From contig PNAE01000007.1 in assembly GCA_003169895.1 (NCBI GenBank), forward strand, positions 1,135,222 to 1,199,221: DNA of 64,000 nt, read 5' to 3'. A program made the position numbers and the translations under genes. Origin of the DNA: Gemmatimonadota bacterium (GTDB lineage Bacteria > Gemmatimonadota > Gemmatimonadetes > Gemmatimonadales > GWC2-71-9). This document shows positions 7,360 through 21,701 of this stretch, piece after piece. Every line of letters begins with the position of its first letter. Position 1 is the stretch's first letter. The notes under the pieces were generated by a model, which saw only the letters and a program-made list of their open reading frames with translations, searched no databases and was not told the origin of the DNA.

Positions 7360-7500
7360 TTGAGAATTCTAGTCCAACGGGCCCGCTATCGGGTCCTCCC
7401 GAAACGCGGCCCCGCCGCGCGCGCGTTCGAACGCTCCCACGATCGACCGACAGATGACCGCCCCACGGACCCGCAGCCACCGTTTCGGTATGCCGCCCAC

Positions 7501-7530
7501 TTGCCCCCCATTCGCCGCCGAGACGATACT
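7501..7530 (+). promoter_or_regulatory. Promoter-like TTGCCC-N18-GATACT abutting the start codons of Uma2 copy 1
   Basis: TTGCCC 7501-7506, 18-nt spacer, GATACT 7525-7530, then ATGcccATG. The same architecture precedes all five copies and the mazE-like gene. Confidence 0.4.
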
Positions 7531-8082
7531 ATGCCCATGCCGCTCGCGAGCCACTACACCGCCGCCGCCGTGCGCGCGCTGCCCGACGACGGCAAGCGCT
7601 ACGAGACCGTCCACGGCGAGCTGCTGGTGACGCCGGCGCCGGGTGGACAACACCAGTTCATTCTCAACCGGCTGACCCTGGTCCTCAACCGGTATCTGGC
7701 GAGTCACGGCCTCGAAGAACTCCTCACCTCGCCCGCAGACATTTCGTTCGGTGAAGCCACGCTGGTGCAGCCCGATCTCTTCGTCGCTGACCTCACCCGG
7801 TTCAAGGAGACCTGGAACTGGGCCGACATCAGGACGCTATACCTGACCATCGAGATCGTGAGCCCGTCCAGCGCCAGGGCCGATCGCATCACCAAGCGCC
7901 GGCTCTATCAGGAACAGCGCATTCCAGCGTATTGGGTCGTGGACATCGACCAGCAGCACGTCGAAGTATGGGCGCCCGATGCGCGATTCCCGATCATCGA
8001 GCGTGAGCAGCTGACCTGGCGGCATCCGGCGCTCGACACGAGCTGCATGGTGGACCTGGTCAAGCTGTTCGGGCAGCATTGA
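7531..8082 (+). CDS. Uma2 family (DUF820) PD-(D/E)xK putative endonuclease, paralog 1 of 5
   Basis: ALPDDGKRYETVHGELLVTPAPGG, PDLFVAD, LTIEIVSPSS and TKRRLYQEQRIPAYWVVD match the Uma2 D...E.xS...K pattern. The track ORF (7120-) is over-extended upstream. Alternative start is the second ATG at 7537. Confidence 0.8.
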   Translation: MPMPLASHYTAAAVRALPDDGKRYETVHGELLVTPAPGGQHQFILNRLTLVLNRYLASHGLEELLTSPADISFGEATLVQPDLFVADLTRFKETWNWADIRTLYLTIEIVSPSSARADRITKRRLYQEQRIPAYWVVDIDQQHVEVWAPDARFPIIEREQLTWRHPALDTSCMVDLVKLFGQH

Positions 8083-8163
8083 CCCTTCGGCGCGCTCTTT
8101 CGTGCCGCGGCCGGCCGAGCGTACCTTGCATCGTATCGGCAGACCGCTGGTCGGAGACTGCCG

Positions 8164-8598
8164 ATGCCCGTGACCGCGAAACTTTCCCAGGCCTTCTACG
8201 ACCGTCTCGGCCACCAGGTGGCCGACGAGATGGTGGACTGGTTCAACCAGGTGGACGCTGCCAACCGTTCTGATCTGCGTGAGCTCAATGAGCTGAACTT
8301 CGCGCGCTTCGGCGCGACGCTCGAGCAGCGTGCGGCGGAGCTCTCCGCCAAGATGGAGCAGCGCTACGGCGACCTGTCGGCGAAGGTCGATCGATTTGCT
8401 GCGGAGCTGTCGGCGAAGATCGACCAGGTATCAGCGAACGTTGATCGGCAGATCGCTCAGCTGTCAGCGAGCGTGGATCGCCAGATCGCGGCTCTCGCGC
8501 TCACGGTCGAGCACCAGCAGGTGATCCAGATGCGGTGGATGATCGGGATGTGGGTGGTTGTGCTTGTCGCTGTGATGGGACTCTGGATCCGGCGCTAG
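8164..8598 (+). CDS. Tail-anchored coiled-coil membrane protein (DUF1640-like), copy 1
   Basis: GGAG 7 nt upstream of the ATG. Central 11-residue repeats (AAELSAKMEQR/YGDLSAKVDRF/AAELSAKIDQV/SANVDRQIAQL/SASVDRQIAAL). C-terminal TM RWMIGMWVVVLVAVMGLWIRR. Confidence 0.65.
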   Translation: MPVTAKLSQAFYDRLGHQVADEMVDWFNQVDAANRSDLRELNELNFARFGATLEQRAAELSAKMEQRYGDLSAKVDRFAAELSAKIDQVSANVDRQIAQLSASVDRQIAALALTVEHQQVIQMRWMIGMWVVVLVAVMGLWIRR

Positions 8599-8689
8599 TC
8601 CGGCGAGCGCGCGTTCGAATGATCCGCGCCCCAGCGAACTGATGATCCGGGCCGATCACGTGCGGCTACACTCGGCGCATGCGCCCCAC

Positions 8690-8719
8690 TTGCCCCCAAT
8701 TCGCCGCCGAGACGATACT
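8690..8719 (+). promoter_or_regulatory. Promoter-like TTGCCC-N18-GATACT, Uma2 copy 2
   Basis: TTGCCC 8690-8695, GATACT 8714-8719, then ATGtccATG. Confidence 0.4.
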
Positions 8720-9268
8720 ATGTCCATGCCGCTCACCAGCTATTTCACCGCTGACGCAGTGCGTGCCCTCCCCGACGACGGCAAGCGCTATGAGACCGTC
8801 CACGGCGAGCTGCTCATGACGCCGGCGCCGGGCGGGCAGCACCAACCCTTCCTCAGCGACCTCCACGTTATTCTCGGCTCCTATCTGGCGGCCAACGGCA
8901 TCAAGGGCGTCCTCGAGTCGCCGGCGGACATTTCGTTCGACGACGGCACCCTGGTGCAGCCTGATCTCTTCGTTGCGGACATCGCGGCGTTCCTGCGTTC
9001 CGGCGAGTGGAAGGACGTCCGGACGCTGTACCTGGTGGTTGAAGTTGTGAGCCAGTCCAGCGACACGTCCGATCGCGTCACCAAACGTCGGCTCTATCAG
9101 GAACATCGCATTCCGGAATACTGGGTCGTCGACATCGACCAGCATCAGGTCGAGGTGTGGACCCCTGACGCACTCTTCCCGGTCATCGAGCGCGAGCGGT
9201 TGGTATGGCGGCATCCGGCGCTTGAGGCCGACTGCACCGTGGATCTGGCGAAGCTGTTGTCACCCTGA
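8720..9268 (+). CDS. Uma2 family putative endonuclease, paralog 2 of 5 (C-terminus remodelled by a REP element)
   Basis: Same motifs as copy 1. It ends ...VDLAKLLSP* instead of ...VDLVKLFGQH*, because the last codons and the stop come from the repeat arm TTGTCACCCTGA. Confidence 0.8.
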   Translation: MSMPLTSYFTADAVRALPDDGKRYETVHGELLMTPAPGGQHQPFLSDLHVILGSYLAANGIKGVLESPADISFDDGTLVQPDLFVADIAAFLRSGEWKDVRTLYLVVEVVSQSSDTSDRVTKRRLYQEHRIPEYWVVDIDQHQVEVWTPDALFPVIERERLVWRHPALEADCTVDLAKLLSP

Positions 9269-9325
9269 GTGTGAGGGGCTGCGCTCAGGGTGACAAGCGT
9301 GTGAGGGCCTGCGCTCAGGGTGACA
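9257..9325. repeat. REP-like palindromic element (one forward arm, two reverse arms)
   Basis: ttgtcaccctgag / gtgtgaggggctgcgctcagggtgacaa / gcgtgtgagggcctgcgctcagggtgaca. Confidence 0.75.
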
Positions 9326-9413
9326 CGGTGGCGCGCGTTCGAACGATCCGCGCCCCTCCGAACCGGTGATCCGGGCCGATCACGTGCGGCTACACTCGGC
9401 GCATTCGCCCCAC

Positions 9414-9443
9414 TTGCCCACCTCTGTCCGCCGAGACGATACT
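9414..9443 (+). promoter_or_regulatory. Promoter-like TTGCCC-N18-GATACT, Uma2 copy 3
   Basis: TTGCCC 9414-9419, GATACT 9438-9443, then ATGtccATG. Confidence 0.4.
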
Positions 9444-9995
9444 ATGTCCATGCCGCTCACCAGCTATTTCACCGCTGACGCAGTGCGTGCCCTCCCCGAC
9501 GACGGCAAGCGCTATGAGACCGTCCACGGCGAGCTGCTCATGACGCCGGCGCCGGGCGGACAGCACCAACCTCTTCTCGGCGACCTGTACCTGGTGCTCG
9601 GCAACTATCTGGCCGCCAACGGTATCCGCGGACTGCTTTTCTCCCCTGCGGACATTTCTTTCGGCGATGATACGCTTGTCCAGCCGGACCTCTTCGTCGC
9701 CGACTGCGCGGCATTCTACCGGTCCGGCAACTGGTCCGACGTGCGGACGCTCCACTTGGTGGTGGAGATCATCTCCCGGTCGAGCGTGAAGGCGGATCGT
9801 ACTACCAAGCGTCGCCTGTATCAGGAACAGCGTATTCCAGCGTATTGGGTCGTGGACATCGATCAGCGCCAGGTCGAGGTGTGGACCCCCGACGCATTCT
9901 TCCCGGTCATCGAGCGTGAGCAGCTGACCTGGCGGCATCCGGCGCTCGACACGAGTTGCATGGTGGACCTGGTCAGGCTGTTCGGGCAGCATTGA
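9444..9995 (+). CDS. Uma2 family putative endonuclease, paralog 3 of 5
   Basis: N-terminal 43 aa identical to copy 2. The C-terminal tail and downstream spacer are as in copy 1. Confidence 0.8.
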   Translation: MSMPLTSYFTADAVRALPDDGKRYETVHGELLMTPAPGGQHQPLLGDLYLVLGNYLAANGIRGLLFSPADISFGDDTLVQPDLFVADCAAFYRSGNWSDVRTLHLVVEIISRSSVKADRTTKRRLYQEQRIPAYWVVDIDQRQVEVWTPDAFFPVIEREQLTWRHPALDTSCMVDLVRLFGQH

Positions 9996-10076
9996 CCCTT
10001 CGGCGCGCTCTTTCGTGCCGCGGCCGGCCGAGCGTACCTTGTATCGTATCGGCAGACCCCTGGTCGGAGACTGCCG

Positions 10077-10424
10077 ATGCCCGTGACCGCGAAACTTTCC
10101 CAGGCCTTCTACGACCGTCTCGGCCACCAGGTGGCCGACGAGATGGTGGACTGGTTCAATCAGGTGGACGCTGCCAACCGTTCTGATCTGCGTGAGCTCA
10201 ATGAGCTGAACTTCGCGCGCTTCGACGCGACGCTGAAGCAGCAACTCTCTGAGTTTTCGCGGGTGCTCGATTCTCGCCTCGCCGAGTTTTCTCGGGCCTT
10301 CGAACGCGAGCTCGCCAAACTCGCCATCGAGCTGAAGGATCAGCAAGTCATCCAGATGCGGTGGATGATCGGGGTGTGGTTGGTGGTGCTTGTCGCTGTG
10401 ATGGGACTCTGGATCCGGCGCTAG
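10077..10424 (+). CDS. Tail-anchored coiled-coil membrane protein (DUF1640-like), copy 2
   Basis: The first 49 aa and the C-terminal TM segment are near-identical to copy 1. The central coiled coil differs in sequence and is 29 aa shorter. Confidence 0.65.
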   Translation: MPVTAKLSQAFYDRLGHQVADEMVDWFNQVDAANRSDLRELNELNFARFDATLKQQLSEFSRVLDSRLAEFSRAFERELAKLAIELKDQQVIQMRWMIGVWLVVLVAVMGLWIRR

Positions 10425-10516
10425 TCCGGCGAGCGCGCGTTCGAACGCTCCCCACCATCGACCAACAGATGACCGGCTGTGCGGTCCCGCGGCCACCGTT
10501 CCGGCATGCCGCCTGC

Positions 10517-10546
10517 TTGCCTCCCGTTCGCCGCCGAGACGATACT
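10517..10546 (+). promoter_or_regulatory. Promoter-like TTGCCT-N18-GATACT, Uma2 copy 4
   Basis: TTGCCT 10517-10522, GATACT 10541-10546, then ATGcccATG. Confidence 0.4.
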
Positions 10547-11098
10547 ATGCCCATGCCGCTCGCGAGCCACTACACCGCCGACGCCGTGCGCGCGCTGCCC
10601 GACGACGGCAACCGCTACGAAACCGTCCACGGCGAGTTGCTAGTGACGCCGGCACCCGGTGGCCCGCATCAGCTGATGCTGTTTCGCCTGATCGCCATCG
10701 TGCAGCCCTATCTCGCGGCCGATGGCCTCGAGCAACTCCTTGGCGCGCCCGCGGATCTGTCATGGGGCGGGGATACGCTCACCCAGCCCGACCTCTTCGT
10801 GGCCGACCTCAGCGCGTTCCGGCGCTCCGGCAAGTGGGCCGACATCCGGACGGTCTATCTGGTGATCGAGATCGTGAGCCCGTCGAGCGCGAAGGCGGAT
10901 CGTACTACCAAGCGTCGCCTCTATCAGGAACAGCACGTTCCCGAATACTGGATCGTCGACATCGATCAGCGCCAGGTCGAGGTGTGGACCCCCGACGCAC
11001 TCTTCCCGATCATTGAGCGTGAGCAGCTGACCTGGCGGCATCCGGCGCTTGAGGCGGGCTGCGTGGTGGACCTGGTCAAGCTGTTCGGGCAGCATTGA
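10547..11098 (+). CDS. Uma2 family putative endonuclease, paralog 4 of 5
   Basis: Same motif set (PDLFVAD, IEIVSPSS, TKRRLYQEQ). Confidence 0.8.
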   Translation: MPMPLASHYTADAVRALPDDGNRYETVHGELLVTPAPGGPHQLMLFRLIAIVQPYLAADGLEQLLGAPADLSWGGDTLTQPDLFVADLSAFRRSGKWADIRTVYLVIEIVSPSSAKADRTTKRRLYQEQHVPEYWIVDIDQRQVEVWTPDALFPIIEREQLTWRHPALEAGCVVDLVKLFGQH

Positions 11099-11218
11099 CC
11101 CTTCGGCGCGCGCGTTCGTACCGCTAGCCCGGCGAGCGCGCGTTCGAACGCTCCCACCATCGACCAACAGATGACCGGCTGTGCGGTCCCGCGGCCACCG
11201 TTCCGGCATGCCGCCTGC

Positions 11219-11248
11219 TTGCCTCCTATTCGCCGCCGAGACGATACT
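11219..11248 (+). promoter_or_regulatory. Promoter-like TTGCCT-N18-GATACT, Uma2 copy 5
   Basis: TTGCCT 11219-11224, GATACT 11243-11248, then ATGtccATG. Confidence 0.4.
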
Positions 11249-11800
11249 ATGTCCATGCCGCTCGCGAACTACTACACTGCCGACGCCGTGCGCGCGCTGC
11301 CCGACGACGGCAACCGCTACGAGACCGTCCACGGCGAATTGCTGGTGACGCCGGCGCCGGGTGGGCGACACCAGTACGTTCTCGCGGAACTCTTTCGTGT
11401 CCTCGACGGGTACCTGGTCAGTCACGGAATCAAGGGGATCCTGTGGTCGCCCGCGGATATTTCCTTCGGCGACGACACGCTGGTGCAGCCCGACCTCTTC
11501 GTGGCCGACCTCGAAGCGTTCAGGCGCTCGGGCAAGTGGGCCGACATCCGCGCGCTCTACCTGACCATCGAGATCGTGAGCCCGTCCAGCGCCAGGGCCG
11601 ATCGGATCACCAAGCGTCGGCTCTATCAGGAACAGCGCATTCCCCAATACTGGGTCGTCGACATCGACCAGCAGCAGGTCGAAGTGTGGGCGCCCGATGC
11701 GCGATTCCCGATTATTGAGCGTGAGCAGCTGACATGGCGCCATCCGGCGCTTGACACGAGCTGCGTGGTGGACCTGGTCAAGCTGTTCGGGCAGCATTGA
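11249..11800 (+). CDS. Uma2 family putative endonuclease, paralog 5 of 5
   Basis: Same motif set. The C-terminal half is almost identical to copy 1. Confidence 0.8.
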   Translation: MSMPLANYYTADAVRALPDDGNRYETVHGELLVTPAPGGRHQYVLAELFRVLDGYLVSHGIKGILWSPADISFGDDTLVQPDLFVADLEAFRRSGKWADIRALYLTIEIVSPSSARADRITKRRLYQEQRIPQYWVVDIDQQQVEVWAPDARFPIIEREQLTWRHPALDTSCVVDLVKLFGQH

Positions 11801-11818: not shown

Positions 11819-11940
11819 TTGTCACCCTGAGCGAAGCGAAGGGGCGGAGTGATGACTTAGTACCAAGTTCCGCCCCTTCGCCTGCGGCTCAGGGTGACAA
11901 GGGCGCCACTCCGCCCCTTCGCCTGCGGCTCAGGGTGACA
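11819..11940. repeat. REP-like palindromic element (one forward arm, two reverse arms)
   Basis: cttgtcaccctgagcgaagcgaaggggcgg ... ccgccccttcgcctgcggctcagggtgacaa ... ccgccccttcgcctgcggctcagggtgaca. Confidence 0.8.
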
Positions 11941-11978
11941 CAAGCCATCCCCCGACGTCGCTAGACTTCCCTCCCCCC

Positions 11979-12767
11979 ATGCCCCTGACTCCAGCCCATG
12001 CTGCCGCGGCGCCGCTGCTGCACCGCCTGATCCGCCCATTGGGCCTCAGTATCCCGATCTCCGCCCTCGTCATCGGCACCATGACGCCGGACTTCGAGTA
12101 CCTTATTCGTCTCACTCCTGGTATTCGCGCCTGGCACACGCCGCTCGGGCTTCTGGAGTTCTGCTTACCTGTCGGCCTGGCGACGTGGTGGGTATTTCGT
12201 GTGATCATCGGCCCGGCGCTGCTGCGACTGCTACCGCCTGGGCTCGGCGCGGCGGCACGCGCGCAGATCGCGCCGGGATCGACATTCCGACTGATCCCCG
12301 GCGCAAGCGTCGCCGTCCTCCTCGGCGCCGTCAGTCACGACTTGTGGGACAGCTTCACGCATGAGGCAGGCTGGGGCGTCCATGAGATCCCTGCGCTCGA
12401 TGCCTCCGTCCCGCTCGGGGGAACCGGTGCAACGCCATGGTATTCGATCCTGCAGTACGGGAGTTCTGCTATCGGCCTGATTGTCATCATTGCCATCCTC
12501 TGGCAGTGGGTCGCGGCACACCCGAAGGCCGATCGCCACGTTCCGGTGGGCCAGCGGGCATGGCGCATCCGCGAACTGGGAGTGCTGCTGCTGGTGGGAG
12601 TGGCGGGAGCGGTACTCAATGCGTCGCGCGGCCGCCATTCCGGCCTCTCATGGACGCTCGGCCTGGCGGCGGTCGGGGGCATGTCGGCGCTCGCACTGGC
12701 GCTCCTGGCCTACGGGATTATCGATTCGATCCGTCACCGCGACGCACCGGCCCGCCGCGACGGCTGA
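11979..12767 (+). CDS. DUF4184-like integral membrane protein (putative metal-dependent hydrolase)
   Basis: N-terminus MPLTPAHAAAAPLL..., PDFEYLIR, later SHDLWDSFTH, and multiple TM segments, as I recall for DUF4184. Confidence 0.55.
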   Translation: MPLTPAHAAAAPLLHRLIRPLGLSIPISALVIGTMTPDFEYLIRLTPGIRAWHTPLGLLEFCLPVGLATWWVFRVIIGPALLRLLPPGLGAAARAQIAPGSTFRLIPGASVAVLLGAVSHDLWDSFTHEAGWGVHEIPALDASVPLGGTGATPWYSILQYGSSAIGLIVIIAILWQWVAAHPKADRHVPVGQRAWRIRELGVLLLVGVAGAVLNASRGRHSGLSWTLGLAAVGGMSALALALLAYGIIDSIRHRDAPARRDG

Positions 12768-12854: not shown

Positions 12855-13091
12855 ATGAAGACCGCGATCTCGATTCCCGATGACCTCTTCGATTCCGCCG
12901 ACGCCTTGGCGGACCGCCTCGGCCTCTCGCGCAGCGCTCTCTATGCCGACGCGGTCGCCGAGTTCGTGGCGAAGCATCAAGGCACCCACATCACCGACCA
13001 ACTGAACACCCTCTACGCCACCGAGCCCAGTCGGCTCGACCGCCACATCAAGCGCGCCCAAGCCAAGGCCGCCCAGTCCGCTCGTTGGTAG
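12855..13091 (+). CDS. Ribbon-helix-helix (CopG/MazE-like) antitoxin
   Basis: MKTAISIPDDLFDSADALADRLGLSRSALYADAVAEFV is a typical RHH N-terminus. It overlaps the downstream toxin gene by 7 nt. Confidence 0.75.
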   Translation: MKTAISIPDDLFDSADALADRLGLSRSALYADAVAEFVAKHQGTHITDQLNTLYATEPSRLDRHIKRAQAKAAQSARW

Positions 13092-13435
13092 TACAGCGGG
13101 GCGAGGTCTGGTGGATCACGCTCCCGGAGCCCGCCGGCTCGGAGCCCGGTTTTCGCCGACCCGTGATCGTCGTCCAGGCAAACGCGTTCAATCGGAGCCG
13201 CATCCAGACCGTGATCGCGGTACTGCTCAGCTCGAACCTGCGGCTATTGGATGCCCCGGGTAATGCATTGGTCCCCGCCAATGCCTCAGGTCTACCGAGA
13301 GACTCCGTCGCGAATGTTTCACAGCTCATCACCATCGACCGCGATGATCTTACGGATCGGGTCGGAAGATTGCCCGGCCGCGTGATGGCCCGCGTGGACC
13401 TCGGACTTCGCATCGTACTCGACCTGGAGCCATAG
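13085..13435 (+). CDS. mazF: PemK/MazF-family type II toxin endoribonuclease
   Basis: RGEVWWITLPEPAGSEPGFRRPVIVVQ...LPRDSVANVSQLITIDRDDL fits the MazF fold signature. TTG start overlaps the antitoxin stop. Confidence 0.8.
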   Translation: MVVQRGEVWWITLPEPAGSEPGFRRPVIVVQANAFNRSRIQTVIAVLLSSNLRLLDAPGNALVPANASGLPRDSVANVSQLITIDRDDLTDRVGRLPGRVMARVDLGLRIVLDLEP

Positions 13436-19674: not shown

Positions 19675-20832
19675 GGCGGCATCGAGATCCGCCTGCAAGT
19701 CCGCCACGTCCTCGATGCCGACCGACAATCTCACCAGCGAATCCGTCAGCCCCATTTCTTCACGCAATGCCTTGGGTACCGATGCATGGGTCATCGAGGC
19801 CGGATGGCCGATCAGGCTCTCCACGCCGCCGAGCGATTCGGCCAGCGCGAAGATCCGGGTGCCTTCCGCCACCTTGCGCGCGCGTTCCAAGCTGCCGAGT
19901 TCCAGCGAAATGATCCCGCCGAACGCGGACATCTGCCGTTTCGCCAACTCGTGCTGCGGATGCTCGGGCAGGCCCGGGTAATACACTCGCGTGACATCCT
20001 TGCGGCCGTCGAGCCACCGCGCGAGCTGCATTGCGTTGTCGCAATGCGCGCGCATCCTGAGCGGCAGCGTCTTCACGCCTCGAAGCGCCAGCCAGCAGTC
20101 AAACGGGCCCGGCACGCCGCCGGCCGCGTTCTGCAGGAAAGCAATCCGTTCAGCGAGGTCGTCGCGCGAGGTCAGCAGCGCGCCGCCGACCATATCGGAA
20201 TGCCCGTTCAGATACTTGGTCGTGGAATGCAGCACGATGTCGGCGCCGAAGGACAACGGCCGCTGGAGCATCGGCGTCGCGAACGTGTTGTCGGTGACCA
20301 GCAGGACACCGAGGGCCTGCGCCATGTCGCCCAGCGCGCGAAGGTCCACCAGGAACATCATCGGATTGCTGGGCGTCTCGCAGAACAGCATGCGCGTGTT
20401 CGGCGTCATTGCCCGTTCCACGTTCGTGACGTCGCGCATGTCGACGAACGAGAAGGTCAGGCCGAAGCGTCCGTAGATCTGGTCCATCTGCCGGTGGCTG
20501 CCGCCGTAGATGTTGTTGCCGACGACGACATGATCGCCGGCGGACAGCAGCTTGAGCGTAGTGTCGAGTGCGGCGAGCCCCGAGGCAAACGCAAAGCCAT
20601 GGGCGGCCCCCTCGAGCGCGGCGAGGTTGGCTTCCCAGACTTCCCGCGTCGGGTTCCGCGTGCGGGCGTACTCGTAGCCATGGTGCGGCCGGCCGAGCCC
20701 ATCCTGGATGTAGGTCGAAGTCTGGTAGATCGGTGGCATCACTGCGCCGGCGACCGGATCGGGGCGCTGGCCAGCGTGCACCGCGAGTGTGGCGAGGTGA
20801 TGGCTGCGGTCGGCTTCGGAAGCACGAGTCAT
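19663..20832 (-). CDS. PLP-dependent transsulfuration enzyme (cystathionine gamma-synthase / lyase family)
   Basis: STTKYLNGHSDMVGG (PLP-lysine motif) and full-length Cys/Met metabolism fold. Confidence 0.88.
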   Translation of the reverse strand: MTRASEADRSHHLATLAVHAGQRPDPVAGAVMPPIYQTSTYIQDGLGRPHHGYEYARTRNPTREVWEANLAALEGAAHGFAFASGLAALDTTLKLLSAGDHVVVGNNIYGGSHRQMDQIYGRFGLTFSFVDMRDVTNVERAMTPNTRMLFCETPSNPMMFLVDLRALGDMAQALGVLLVTDNTFATPMLQRPLSFGADIVLHSTTKYLNGHSDMVGGALLTSRDDLAERIAFLQNAAGGVPGPFDCWLALRGVKTLPLRMRAHCDNAMQLARWLDGRKDVTRVYYPGLPEHPQHELAKRQMSAFGGIISLELGSLERARKVAEGTRIFALAESLGGVESLIGHPASMTHASVPKALREEMGLTDSLVRLSVGIEDVADLQADLDAALSS

Positions 20833-21701
20833 TACGCCACCCGCCCTTCGCGGTCGGCGAAGCGGCGCCGCATGATGTCGACTGCCTCGGGATTGCTGTC
20901 GATCAGGACTACGTCGCGGCCGTGCCGGTCGGCGGCCTCGCCAAACGAGCCACTGCCCGCGAAGAAATCACACAGCCGCATCCCGGGCGCGGAGTGGACT
21001 TTCACAATGCGTTCGAGCAAGCCGACCGGCTTCTGGGTCGGATAACCGGTTTTTTCCTTGCCGGTCGGACTCACGATGGTGTGCCACCAGGTATCCGTCG
21101 GTGTCTTGCCGCGCGCCGCCTTCTCGGCGCCGACCAGGCCCGGCGCCATGTACGGGATGCGGTCGGCCTCATCGTGCCGGAAGACGTAGTCGGTCGGATC
21201 CTGCGAGTACCACAGGATGTTGTCATGCTTGGCCGGCCAGCGCCGGGTGGTGCGAGCGCCGTAATCGTAGGCCCAGATGATCTCGTTCTGGAAGCACTCC
21301 CGGCCGAAGATCCCGTCCAGGAGCACCTTGACGTAGTGCACCTCGCGATAGTCGAGATGCACGAACAGGCTGCCCTGAGGCGTCAGCAGCCGCTTCGCTT
21401 CATGCAGTCGCGGCTCGAGGAAGCCGAGGTAGTCGTCGAACGAGTCGGCGTAGCTGTGCGTTGCGACCGGCTCGGTGCGATAGCGCTGGCCCTGGAAGCC
21501 GGTCCGGTTGCCGTCCGGGTCGCGCGTGGTCACCAGCTGCGTCTGTCGGCGCGTGCGCCCGGTGTTGAACGGTGGGTCGATATAGATGAGATCGAACGAG
21601 CCGTCGGCAAAGCCGCGCAGAACCTCGATATTGTCGCCCAGATGCACGTCGATCATCGAGCCTCCGCAGCCTCGGACCCGGACGAATCTAGTGCGGATCA
21701 C
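20832..21701 (-). CDS. Beta-class DNA methyltransferase (N6-adenine or N4-cytosine), orphan
   Basis: Motif IV LIYIDPPFNTG precedes motif I CDFFAGSGSFGEAA. The likely start is MIDVHLGDN at 21656. The stop TAA overlaps the ATG of the downstream gene (TAATG). Confidence 0.85.
   Translation of the reverse strand: MIRTRFVRVRGCGGSMIDVHLGDNIEVLRGFADGSFDLIYIDPPFNTGRTRRQTQLVTTRDPDGNRTGFQGQRYRTEPVATHSYADSFDDYLGFLEPRLHEAKRLLTPQGSLFVHLDYREVHYVKVLLDGIFGRECFQNEIIWAYDYGARTTRRWPAKHDNILWYSQDPTDYVFRHDEADRIPYMAPGLVGAEKAARGKTPTDTWWHTIVSPTGKEKTGYPTQKPVGLLERIVKVHSAPGMRLCDFFAGSGSFGEAADRHGRDVVLIDSNPEAVDIMRRRFADREGRVA

Follow-up and report, generated by a model that had tools for sequence, protein, structure and literature searches.

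Uma2 proteins (also known as DUF820, TT1808 or COG4636) form a predicted PD-(D/E)XK family (PMC3424549, PMC1274311, PMC9403480, PMC4963859) in which lineage-specific paralogue expansion is typical: Thermus has 15 paralogues (PMC1274311), Thermosynechococcus 15-17 (PMC9403480). Mobile-element contexts were noted for the family in gammaproteobacteria (Steczkiewicz et al., 2012). We analyzed a 64-kb stretch of DNA (hereafter the window) from a soil bacterium of the phylum Gemmatimonadota, in which five Uma2 genes (U1 to U5) stand head to tail and two of them are followed by a gene for a tail-anchored coiled-coil protein (the partner genes P1 and P2). The Uma2 genes of this array are bona fide single-domain members of about 183 aa, and their paralogue expansion is what the family would lead one to expect. 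They differ from described Uma2 genes in forming a five-gene head-to-tail array with gene-conversion mosaicism, in that each copy has a subfamily-specific promoter module of ~110 nt, and in that some adjoin a coiled-coil gene. No description of such an array, of the mosaicism, of the promoter module or of a coiled-coil neighbor of Uma2 was found in the searchable literature.

We favor, with moderate confidence, the explanation that the locus is an old tandem expansion of Uma2 and coiled-coil genes, each gene being independently promoted and belonging to a dispersed regulon, with the partner as a facultative companion. The best evidence that both families take part in one programme is a promoter-type element that they share; it does not indicate the nature of that programme.

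The Uma2 genes are all encoded on the forward strand, at positions 7531-8082 (U1, 183 aa), 8720-9268 (U2, 182 aa), 9444-9995 (U3, 183 aa), 10547-11098 (U4, 183 aa) and 11249-11800 (U5, 183 aa). They match the Uma2 model PF05685 with 93.3, 95.3, 89.3, 104.4 and 95.8 bits, respectively, against a Pfam gathering cutoff of 27 bits, which places all five in the family. D82 (in QPDLFVAD), E108 and S111 (in IEIVS) and K122 (in TKRRLYQE) do not vary among the five copies or across 46 homologues, giving the PD-(D/E)XK-type pattern of PD, E-x-x-S and a lysine on the next helix. U4 was chosen for AlphaFold modeling. Its model (predicted local distance difference test, pLDDT, 90.6; predicted template modeling score, pTM, 0.87) has the restriction-endonuclease-like fold of TT1808 (1wdj) and Ava_3926 (3ot2). 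These two structures together with 6okh and 9y1l, all uncharacterized Uma2 proteins, are its sole good structural neighbors (Foldseek probability 1.00, template modeling scores 0.65-0.77). From fold and residues, the proteins are predicted to be Mg2+-dependent PD-(D/E)XK enzymes that cleave or bind nucleic acids. A tblastn search of the 64 kb revealed no further Uma2 copies. Extension of the reading frames to an in-frame ATG at -78 was ruled out, because copy 1 has a 1-nt indel there, the GATGAC motif around this ATG shifts by 1-3 nt among homologues and the PF05685 match begins at residue 15.

P1 (8164-8598, 144 aa) and P2 (10077-10424, 115 aa), also on the forward strand, start 81 nt after U1 and U3, respectively. 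A first-pass annotation of the window, made from the sequence alone, had thus correctly described five co-oriented genes of about 183 aa with Uma2 family membership and intact D/E/K residues, a membrane-anchored coiled-coil gene behind copies 1 and 3, and a MazEF module and repeat elements close by. It had also stated that Uma2 has no established role, and indeed we found no experimental function in the searchable literature. The closest homologues of the array genes all come from metagenome-assembled genomes of Gemmatimonadota, and many assemblies of one species, GCA_003134875.1 and GCA_003169745.1 among them, contain the array of five plus two genes, gene for gene.

A promoter-type element common to both families

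All seven genes are preceded by an element with the consensus CTTKC-N12-GCCGAG-NN-KANNNT on the forward strand. In front of U1 (7500-7530) it reads CTTGCC-N11-GCCGAG-AC-GATACT and abuts ATGCCCATG; in front of P1 (8097-8127) it reads CTTTCG-N11-GCCGAG-CG-TACCTT and is located ~37 nt before the ATG, followed by a GGAG. A pattern scan locates the others at 8689-8719 (U2), 9413-9443 (U3), 10010-10040 (P2), 10516-10546 (U4) and 11218-11248 (U5). The full pattern thus has seven matches in the window against 0.08 expected, all at the five Uma2 and two partner genes. The individual promotion proposed in the first-pass annotation is consistent with this promoter-like element at each gene.

The element was followed through loci from other genomes, which were picked for containing Uma2 or partner genes. 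Among ~85 Uma2 upstream regions from many genomes there is no indel between -37 and -1, and TTGC (-30 to -27), GCCGAG (around -15), A(-5) and T(-1) are near-invariant, followed by ATGnnnATG. The 91 partner genes share CTCTTTCGGTAC-N9-GCCGAGCGTAnnTTGTA, then ~25 nt, GGAG and the ATG. Anchored on GCCGAG, both families follow the same layout, CTT(G/T)C(N)-N11-GCCGAG-(C/A)(G/C)-(G/T)AnnnT, and the invariant bases are those that are important in a -35/-10 pair with an 18-nt spacer. In the Uma2 genes the -10-like hexamer directly abuts ATGnnnATG. The Uma2 mRNA is predicted from this layout to be leaderless, starting at the A of the second ATG, and the partner mRNA is predicted to carry a leader of ~25 nt with a Shine-Dalgarno sequence.

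For the background we scanned 1.21 Mb of non-redundant Gemmatimonadota DNA flanking the surveyed genes. The pattern GCCGAGCS[TG]ANNNT has 115 matches there, compared to 4 and 7 for permuted controls. Seventy-one matches directly precede partner starts and 28 precede Uma2 starts, while at least 7 of the remaining 16 precede Uma2 or partner copies that were missed by the criteria of the hidden Markov models (HMMs). The element is also present at every copy in three further arrays (L194, L195 and L196, see below). Being nearly exclusive to the two families across 1.2 Mb, it suggests a dispersed common regulon.

Three other readings of these motifs were rejected. CCGAG does not act as the Shine-Dalgarno sequence of Uma2, as the same box is found 43-51 nt before the starts of partner genes, which have their own GGAG. 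A palindromic operator CTCGGC-N-GCCGAG occurs in 17% of partner and 10% of Uma2 promoters compared to 8-9% of shuffled controls. Finally, the leaderless layout is not typical of the genome, being confined in the window to the five Uma2 genes and a MazE-like antitoxin gene.

Upstream of the element, the Uma2 genes carry a second conserved part. The blocks of ~115 nt before each Uma2 ATG in the window are homologous to each other, and homology among loci ends around -110, beyond which unrelated contexts begin, often with an intrinsic terminator. The distal module of U1 (7416-7499) contains the palindrome GCGTTCGAACGC (7423-7434), GATGAC near -78 and a CATG-type motif near -42; upstream alignment gives the equivalent modules of U2 to U5 at 8605-8688, 9329-9412, 10432-10515 and 11134-11217, all on the forward strand. 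The module is kept across the genomes of 80 loci numbered L091-L170, with a CGTTTTCGG-like sequence or GCGTTCGAACGC near -105, GCGTGAAAnCGATGAC(G) between about -90 and -78 and (C/G)RTG near -42. A second promoter located upstream and a regulator site are two candidate functions for it. Its -105 motif is similar to the CTCTTTCGGTAC box of the partner genes.

The first-pass annotation had called this block a conserved leader of about 115 nt. The conservation itself was correctly recognized, and a promoter module is the more likely interpretation. That the block is instead transcribed and acts as a regulatory leader, such as a riboregulator, an attenuator or a small RNA, appears very improbable to us. 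Such a leader would account for the motifs at -105, -78 and -42 and for conservation that reaches as far as about -110, for a GAGG located 9-10 nt before the first ATG and for the hairpins that single sequences can form. Against it, RNAalifold on 78 Uma2 upstream sequences found neither common pairs nor covariation, and Rfam gave nothing at the gathering threshold, only spurious matches of miRNA hairpins on a repeat described below; a structured RNA leader was rejected on these two results. In addition, the position of GCCGAG ~45 nt upstream of partner genes with their own GGAG, as well as the match of the invariant bases to a -35/-10 pair, argue for a promoter.

Age and mosaic structure of the Uma2 copies

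The five copies share between 67 and 82% of their amino acids and between 74 and 85% of their nucleotides in pairwise comparison, and are therefore not near-identical, as they had first been described. Pairwise synonymous divergence (dS) is between 0.37 and 0.93 and the ratio of nonsynonymous to synonymous divergence (dN/dS) between 0.17 and 0.35. These values indicate that the copies are no recent duplicates, in agreement with the first-pass annotation, and that all of them have evolved under purifying selection; each is thus probably functional. The divergence is unevenly distributed. The ratio of nonsynonymous to synonymous differences among the copies (pN/pS) amounts to 0.70 in codons 43-67 and 1.0 in codons 88-98, compared to 0.15-0.31 elsewhere, which bears out the local diversification that had been noticed at first reading. 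As for positive selection, crude regional dN/dS is nowhere clearly above 1, except in a C-terminal tail of 10 codons.

Sliding windows reveal a mosaic. Identity between U4 and U5 is 98-100% upstream and drops to 57-65% in the center of the coding region; U2 and U3 do not differ at all from -7 to +113, and U1 and U3 are 97% identical at their 3' ends. Near-identical flanks around a divergent center point to gene conversion that homogenizes the flanks, leaving old divergent alleles in codons 43-67 and 88-98. On the U4 model the first of these patches corresponds to a long helix (residues 39-57) and the second to a short helix (89-94) just after the PD strand. The buried positions of the long helix (H41, Q42, L45, L48, Y55 and L56) are invariant across the 46 homologues, and its exposed stripe (positions 40, 43, 46, 49, 50, 53, 54 and 57) is among the most variable parts of Uma2 in the same set.

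An independent array of five Uma2 genes in another genome (L196; GCA_964421625.1, CAYQXR010000020.1, 5193-8558) repeats this pattern. Its copies of 185 aa each are 77-86% identical, spaced by 680-724 nt and flanked by housekeeping genes, with the same variable helix and loop patches and no partner gene. The patches have a dS of 0.79 and a dN of 0.36, the remainder a dS of 0.24 and a dN of 0.03. Conversion would thus spare the same two surface segments in separate lineages, as expected if diversity is kept up in a surface for recognition or pairing, and equally so, with dN/dS at or below 1, if constraint is relaxed.

Flanks homogenized by gene conversion, around divergent central segments that are maintained, are also found in hsdS specificity genes and silent pilin cassettes. 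The window array differs from these systems in that it has no invertase or recombinase and no layout of one expression locus with silent copies: each of its genes has a full-length open reading frame behind a promoter-type element of its own.

The coiled-coil family and its association with Uma2

The partner proteins consist of a conserved N-terminus of 55 aa, a stalk of hendecad repeats and a C-terminal transmembrane helix. P1 and P2 are identical over residues 1-49 and near-identical in the C-terminal hydrophobic helix, and are separated in between by an indel of 29 aa and many substitutions, the stalk of P2 being divergent and 29 aa shorter than that of P1. At the nucleotide level, the first ~165 nt (8164-8330 versus 10077-10243) differ at two positions and the stalks are partly unalignable. 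Conserved ends around a variable middle, as in Uma2, suggest that gene conversion may act on the partner genes too. The predicted structure is a single helix from residue 17 to 143 with 18 hydrophobic residues at the C-terminus.

A search of the protein collection returned ~1,968 relatives at E<=1e-3, and the 451 relatives in species-representative genomes are essentially all from Gemmatimonadota. Throughout the family, the conserved 55-aa N-terminus is followed by a hypervariable stalk and the C-terminal transmembrane helix. Self-identity of the stalk is 0.42 at a lag of 11 residues and 0.36 at a lag of 22, against ~0.05 elsewhere. Hydrophobic residues recur with a period of 3.67, and length classes are 11 residues apart.

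Several described groups come closest. CCDC90-like/DUF1640 proteins (PF07798) have a comparable long helical repeat region before a C-terminal transmembrane helix, an architecture that the partner shares. The DUF1640 assignment suggested in the first-pass annotation does not hold at the sequence level: P1 and P2 score 27.0 and 19.6 bits against a gathering cutoff of 33.5 bits, and the model reaches E<=1e-3 in only 7 of 32 family members. Apolipoprotein and LEA-type repeats have the same 11-residue periodicity, and a match to the Apolipoprotein Pfam model stays below threshold. The partner differs from the proteins covered by the CCDC90-like and apolipoprotein models, besides the sub-threshold scores, in its conserved 55-aa N-terminal domain, which lies outside those models, and in its apparent restriction to Gemmatimonadota. 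A further group comprises the paralogous coiled-coil families of Leptospira (LA_3696, SpiroCoCo, LA_3659). The 51-aa model of the LA_3696 N-terminal domain (NCBIfam NF047472) aligns collinearly at E<=0.01 in 20 of 32 members (best 5.6e-4), but all matches are far under the curated cutoff of 32, with 15.8 and 17.1 bits for P1 and P2. None of the Pfam and NCBIfam models matched captures the partner, which is apparently a large undescribed family of the Gemmatimonadota.

The coupling of both families was examined in a partner-centered survey (80 loci, 93 partner genes, 755 kb) and a Uma2-centered survey (80 metagenome loci). Uma2 is directly adjacent to ~6 of the 93 partner genes, in both gene orders and with one divergent pair. 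Counted as adjacencies there were 7, whereas placing the genes at random within these loci would give 2.4 (P=0.002). Seventy of the Uma2-centered loci have one Uma2 gene and ten have two; a partner is nearby in three. Partner genes are found alone or in tandem with each other, and no conserved obligate neighbor exists in the 80 loci; the most recurrent ones are a TolB/tricorn-like protein (13/80), partner paralogues (9/80) and Uma2 (8/80). One such tandem, with paralogues of 136 and 176 aa and without Uma2, lies in the same or a closely related genome (L001, 10001-11098), where it adjoins a tRNA gene and an integrase island with EcoRII, a Dcm-type methylase, Vsr and a Z1-domain protein. Besides L196, a second partnerless array (L194, 293-5561) contains three tandem Uma2 genes, each with its promoter box. 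The pairing is thus facultative across the phylum, and the partner is not a subunit that every Uma2 protein needs. Accordingly, the fixed partnership assumed in the first-pass annotation has to be given up, and with both orders, both strands and partnerless arrays the genes do not form the fixed-order pair of a type II toxin-antitoxin (TA) system.

A link between Uma2 and coiled-coil proteins across phyla was considered for Leptospira, from which the nearest structure (6okh) comes and which has the LA_3696 and SpiroCoCo families, and was rejected. The orthologue of 6okh stands there in a conserved position between yajQ and MPL17 (L197-L200); its downstream neighbor MPL17 is a secreted surface protein and no coiled-coil protein. 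In one Leptospira genome an insertion sequence (DDE_3) is inserted just upstream of this orthologue.

In the window lineage itself, both genes were joined at an earlier stage. A syntenic relative (L195) has the order epimerase, Uma2, partner, Uma2 behind the same epimerase gene as in the window. When the spacer between U4 and U5 is aligned to an interval with an intact partner gene, its first 38 aligned nucleotides equal the spacer between Uma2 and partner, including the CTTTCG box of the latter, and the alignment resumes exactly at the last codon and stop of the partner (CGCTAG). We interpret this spacer as the scar of a deletion of ~400 nt that removed a partner gene (11099-11127, forward strand, junction 11121/11122). 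The scar shows that the array arose from a repeat unit comprising both a Uma2 and a partner gene.

These data also bear on a simpler explanation, namely ordinary paralogue expansions of two unrelated small-gene families in permissive regions, with a hitch-hiking or captured promoter and no coupling between them. Uma2 expansions have long been known (PMC1274311, PMC9403480), most Uma2 and partner genes are non-adjacent and vary in order, partnerless arrays exist and partner genes cluster with each other. We nevertheless consider this explanation unlikely. The element is conserved base for base in ~180 genes with saturated synonymous sites, and selection must therefore maintain it in both families. 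Hardly any other genes have it, Uma2 and partner genes adjoin about three times as often as random placement would predict, and the ancestral unit of this locus contained both genes.

Genomic context and possible roles

The array is flanked on one side by Wza/Wzz polysaccharide-export and epimerase genes and on the other by genes for a DUF4184 protein, MazEF, a PEP-CTERM protein, a UvrC-like protein, Fpg, PurD and an M48 peptidase. The gene directly after the array (11979-12767, 164 bits) encodes the DUF4184 protein, a membrane protein resembling Zn-dependent phospholipase C; it is kept in all assemblies of the species and absent from the syntenic locus L195. It is followed by a ribbon-helix-helix (RHH) antitoxin gene (12855-13091) that overlaps by 7 nt with a MazF/PemK toxin gene (13085-13435). 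There is no sign of linkage between this MazEF pair and the array. The antitoxin gene of this pair, the MazE-like one mentioned above, has TTGCCC-N18-TATACT ending 5 nt before its ATG, the sole clear leaderless-type layout in the window outside Uma2. It lacks the GCCGAG box and thus falls outside the shared-element set. The contig annotation contains an N6/N4 DNA methyltransferase-type gene (PF01555) on the reverse strand at ~20286-21700, ~9 kb downstream of the array.

Two insertions of elements resembling repetitive extragenic palindromes (REP) or miniature inverted-repeat transposable elements (MITE) have modified the array. The first, at the 3' end of U2 (9257-9326, no strand assigned), consists of two copies of TGTCACCCTGAG...CTCAGGGTGACA and replaced the last codons of the gene, which ends in KLLSP* instead of KLFGQH*. 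The second (11820-11941, likewise without strand) ends the array with inverted and direct repeats, including an exact 31-nt direct repeat at 11869-11899 and 11910-11940, and truncates the shared 3' flank after U5. Both insertions, and a further element at L001 (9497-9670), have termini of the type TGTCACCCTGAGCG...CTCAGGGTGACA, in inverted and direct copies.

A role in defense was proposed in the first-pass annotation, which regarded the array as a cassette system. All copies match the HMMs of PDC-S03 in PADLOC, a single-gene phage-defense candidate, with E-values between 1e-20 and 1e-23 (4.5e-22 for U1, 1.9e-23 for U2 and 2.7e-21 for U4). PDC-S03 is an unvalidated candidate for which no paper was found in the searchable literature, and the window locus has no defense-island, viral or mobile context. 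No integrase or transposase Pfam match lies within 10 kb of the array, and together with the housekeeping flanks this argues against a classical defense island. Other Uma2 or partner loci do lie near AbiE or restriction-modification islands. The L194 array is directly downstream of an AbiEi/AbiEii module (abortive infection or TA) and an unannotated gene of 287 aa, the only clear defense-type neighborhood among the arrays seen. An origin from phages was rejected because neither family occurs on viral contigs, where the 23 matches to the box are chance hits of low GC content without the -35 part or genes.

In its strongest form, the defense explanation states that diversified restriction-like Uma2 nucleases act against phages or plasmids together with an obligate membrane coiled-coil sensor or tether. 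We consider this quite unlikely, even though it would accommodate the PDC-S03 matches, the nuclease fold with intact residues, the diversified surface patches, the multicopy and patchy arrangement of the genes, the array beside AbiEi/AbiEii and the partner pair beside the island with EcoRII, Dcm and Vsr. An obligate partner is hard to reconcile with its lack at most Uma2 loci and in other arrays; moreover, the locus lacks a partner for self-protection such as a methyltransferase, all assemblies have the array at a fixed place between housekeeping genes, neither family is viral, dN/dS does not exceed 1 and PDC-S03 itself is unvalidated. A defense role in a broader sense is possible, to which the window locus lends no support.

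Selfish or addictive elements are a further candidate, with Uma2 as a homing-endonuclease-like protein or toxin and the partner or MazEF as antidote. The genes are small, of nuclease fold and present in many copies, each has a self-contained module of ~110 nt plus promoter at which homology ends, a type II TA pair lies 1 kb away, and mobile-element contexts are on record for gammaproteobacteria (Steczkiewicz et al., 2012). We nonetheless give this explanation hardly any credence: the two genes are not paired in a conserved way, the partner with its single long helix and membrane anchor is unlike an antitoxin, the locus is syntenic and stable with no integrase or transposase within 10 kb, the units have neither flanking terminal repeats nor target duplications, and all five copies have been under long-term purifying selection. 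The locus does not resemble an integron-type or other mobile cassette array either: no integrase or transposase match is nearby and the units are bounded only by the end of homology at about -110, although no dedicated attC search was part of this result.

In the explanation that we favor, the old and facultatively partnered expansion, a two-gene unit of Uma2 and a tail-anchored hendecad coiled-coil protein would have been multiplied by unequal crossing-over, after which one partner copy was deleted and the REP-like elements inserted. Gene conversion would keep the copies alike in their 5' modules, N-terminal 40 codons and 3' halves, and the exposed face of helix 39-57 and the segment 88-98 would retain divergent alleles. 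The copies, each probably functional, would then differ in a surface for substrate recognition or subunit pairing. The seven genes would represent seven transcription units behind the same promoter-type element, and the two families most likely make up a single dispersed regulon, controlled by a sigma factor or regulator of its own.

Several points weigh against this explanation. The start of transcription, the leaderless state and the co-regulation are predictions from the sequence. A generic sigma-70 scan missed the sites, which match 8 of 12 consensus positions, and the invariant first ATG with GAGG 9-10 nt before it could mean that the Uma2 mRNA has a leader. Exclusivity of the element was gauged against ~1.2 Mb of DNA flanking gene-selected loci and not against whole genomes, and the two families may have come to share a promoter by common descent or promoter capture, without any joint function. 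The variable patches are explained equally well by relaxed constraint combined with failed conversion in divergent DNA, because their dN/dS is at or below 1. Finally, the searchable literature reports no nuclease activity for any Uma2 protein.

To call the locus an undescribed system, as the first-pass annotation did, is too strong, since its Uma2 genes are ordinary members of a known, uncharacterized family. What appears to be new is the architecture of the array, the protected variable patches, the uncatalogued hendecad-stalk family and, above all, the shared promoter-type element. The biological role could be in defense or in a response to stress or DNA damage. A bolder proposal, which we regard as doubtful, is that in the Gemmatimonadota a Uma2 subfamily and the stalk family, each with many paralogues, are jointly controlled as a dispersed regulon by a sigma factor or regulator that is dedicated to them and recognizes the shared element, with deliberately maintained, diversified recognition surfaces and with stalks that localize or gate the nucleases at the membrane. 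If true, this would be a new inducible system of nucleic-acid surveillance or stress response with many specificities, and would provide the first functional handle on Uma2/DUF820.

The Uma2/DUF820 family is very large. The subfamily of the window alone comprises >7,000 clusters at 90% identity, and cyanobacterial and Thermus genomes contain dozens of copies each. Structures have been solved since 2004, yet the family has no known function. A highly specific cis-element, which would define when the genes are expressed, is a handle for finding the regulator and delimiting the regulon, and the pair of hypervariable patches spared by conversion are natural candidates for specificity determinants. 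The tail-anchored stalk proteins, with their variable number of 11-mer repeats and the same control element, are a second family that offers such a handle. If the co-regulation is true, it would give Uma2 its first functional context outside cyanobacteria; if it is false, the locus would still illustrate cleanly how a variable core can be protected while the genes of an array evolve in concert.

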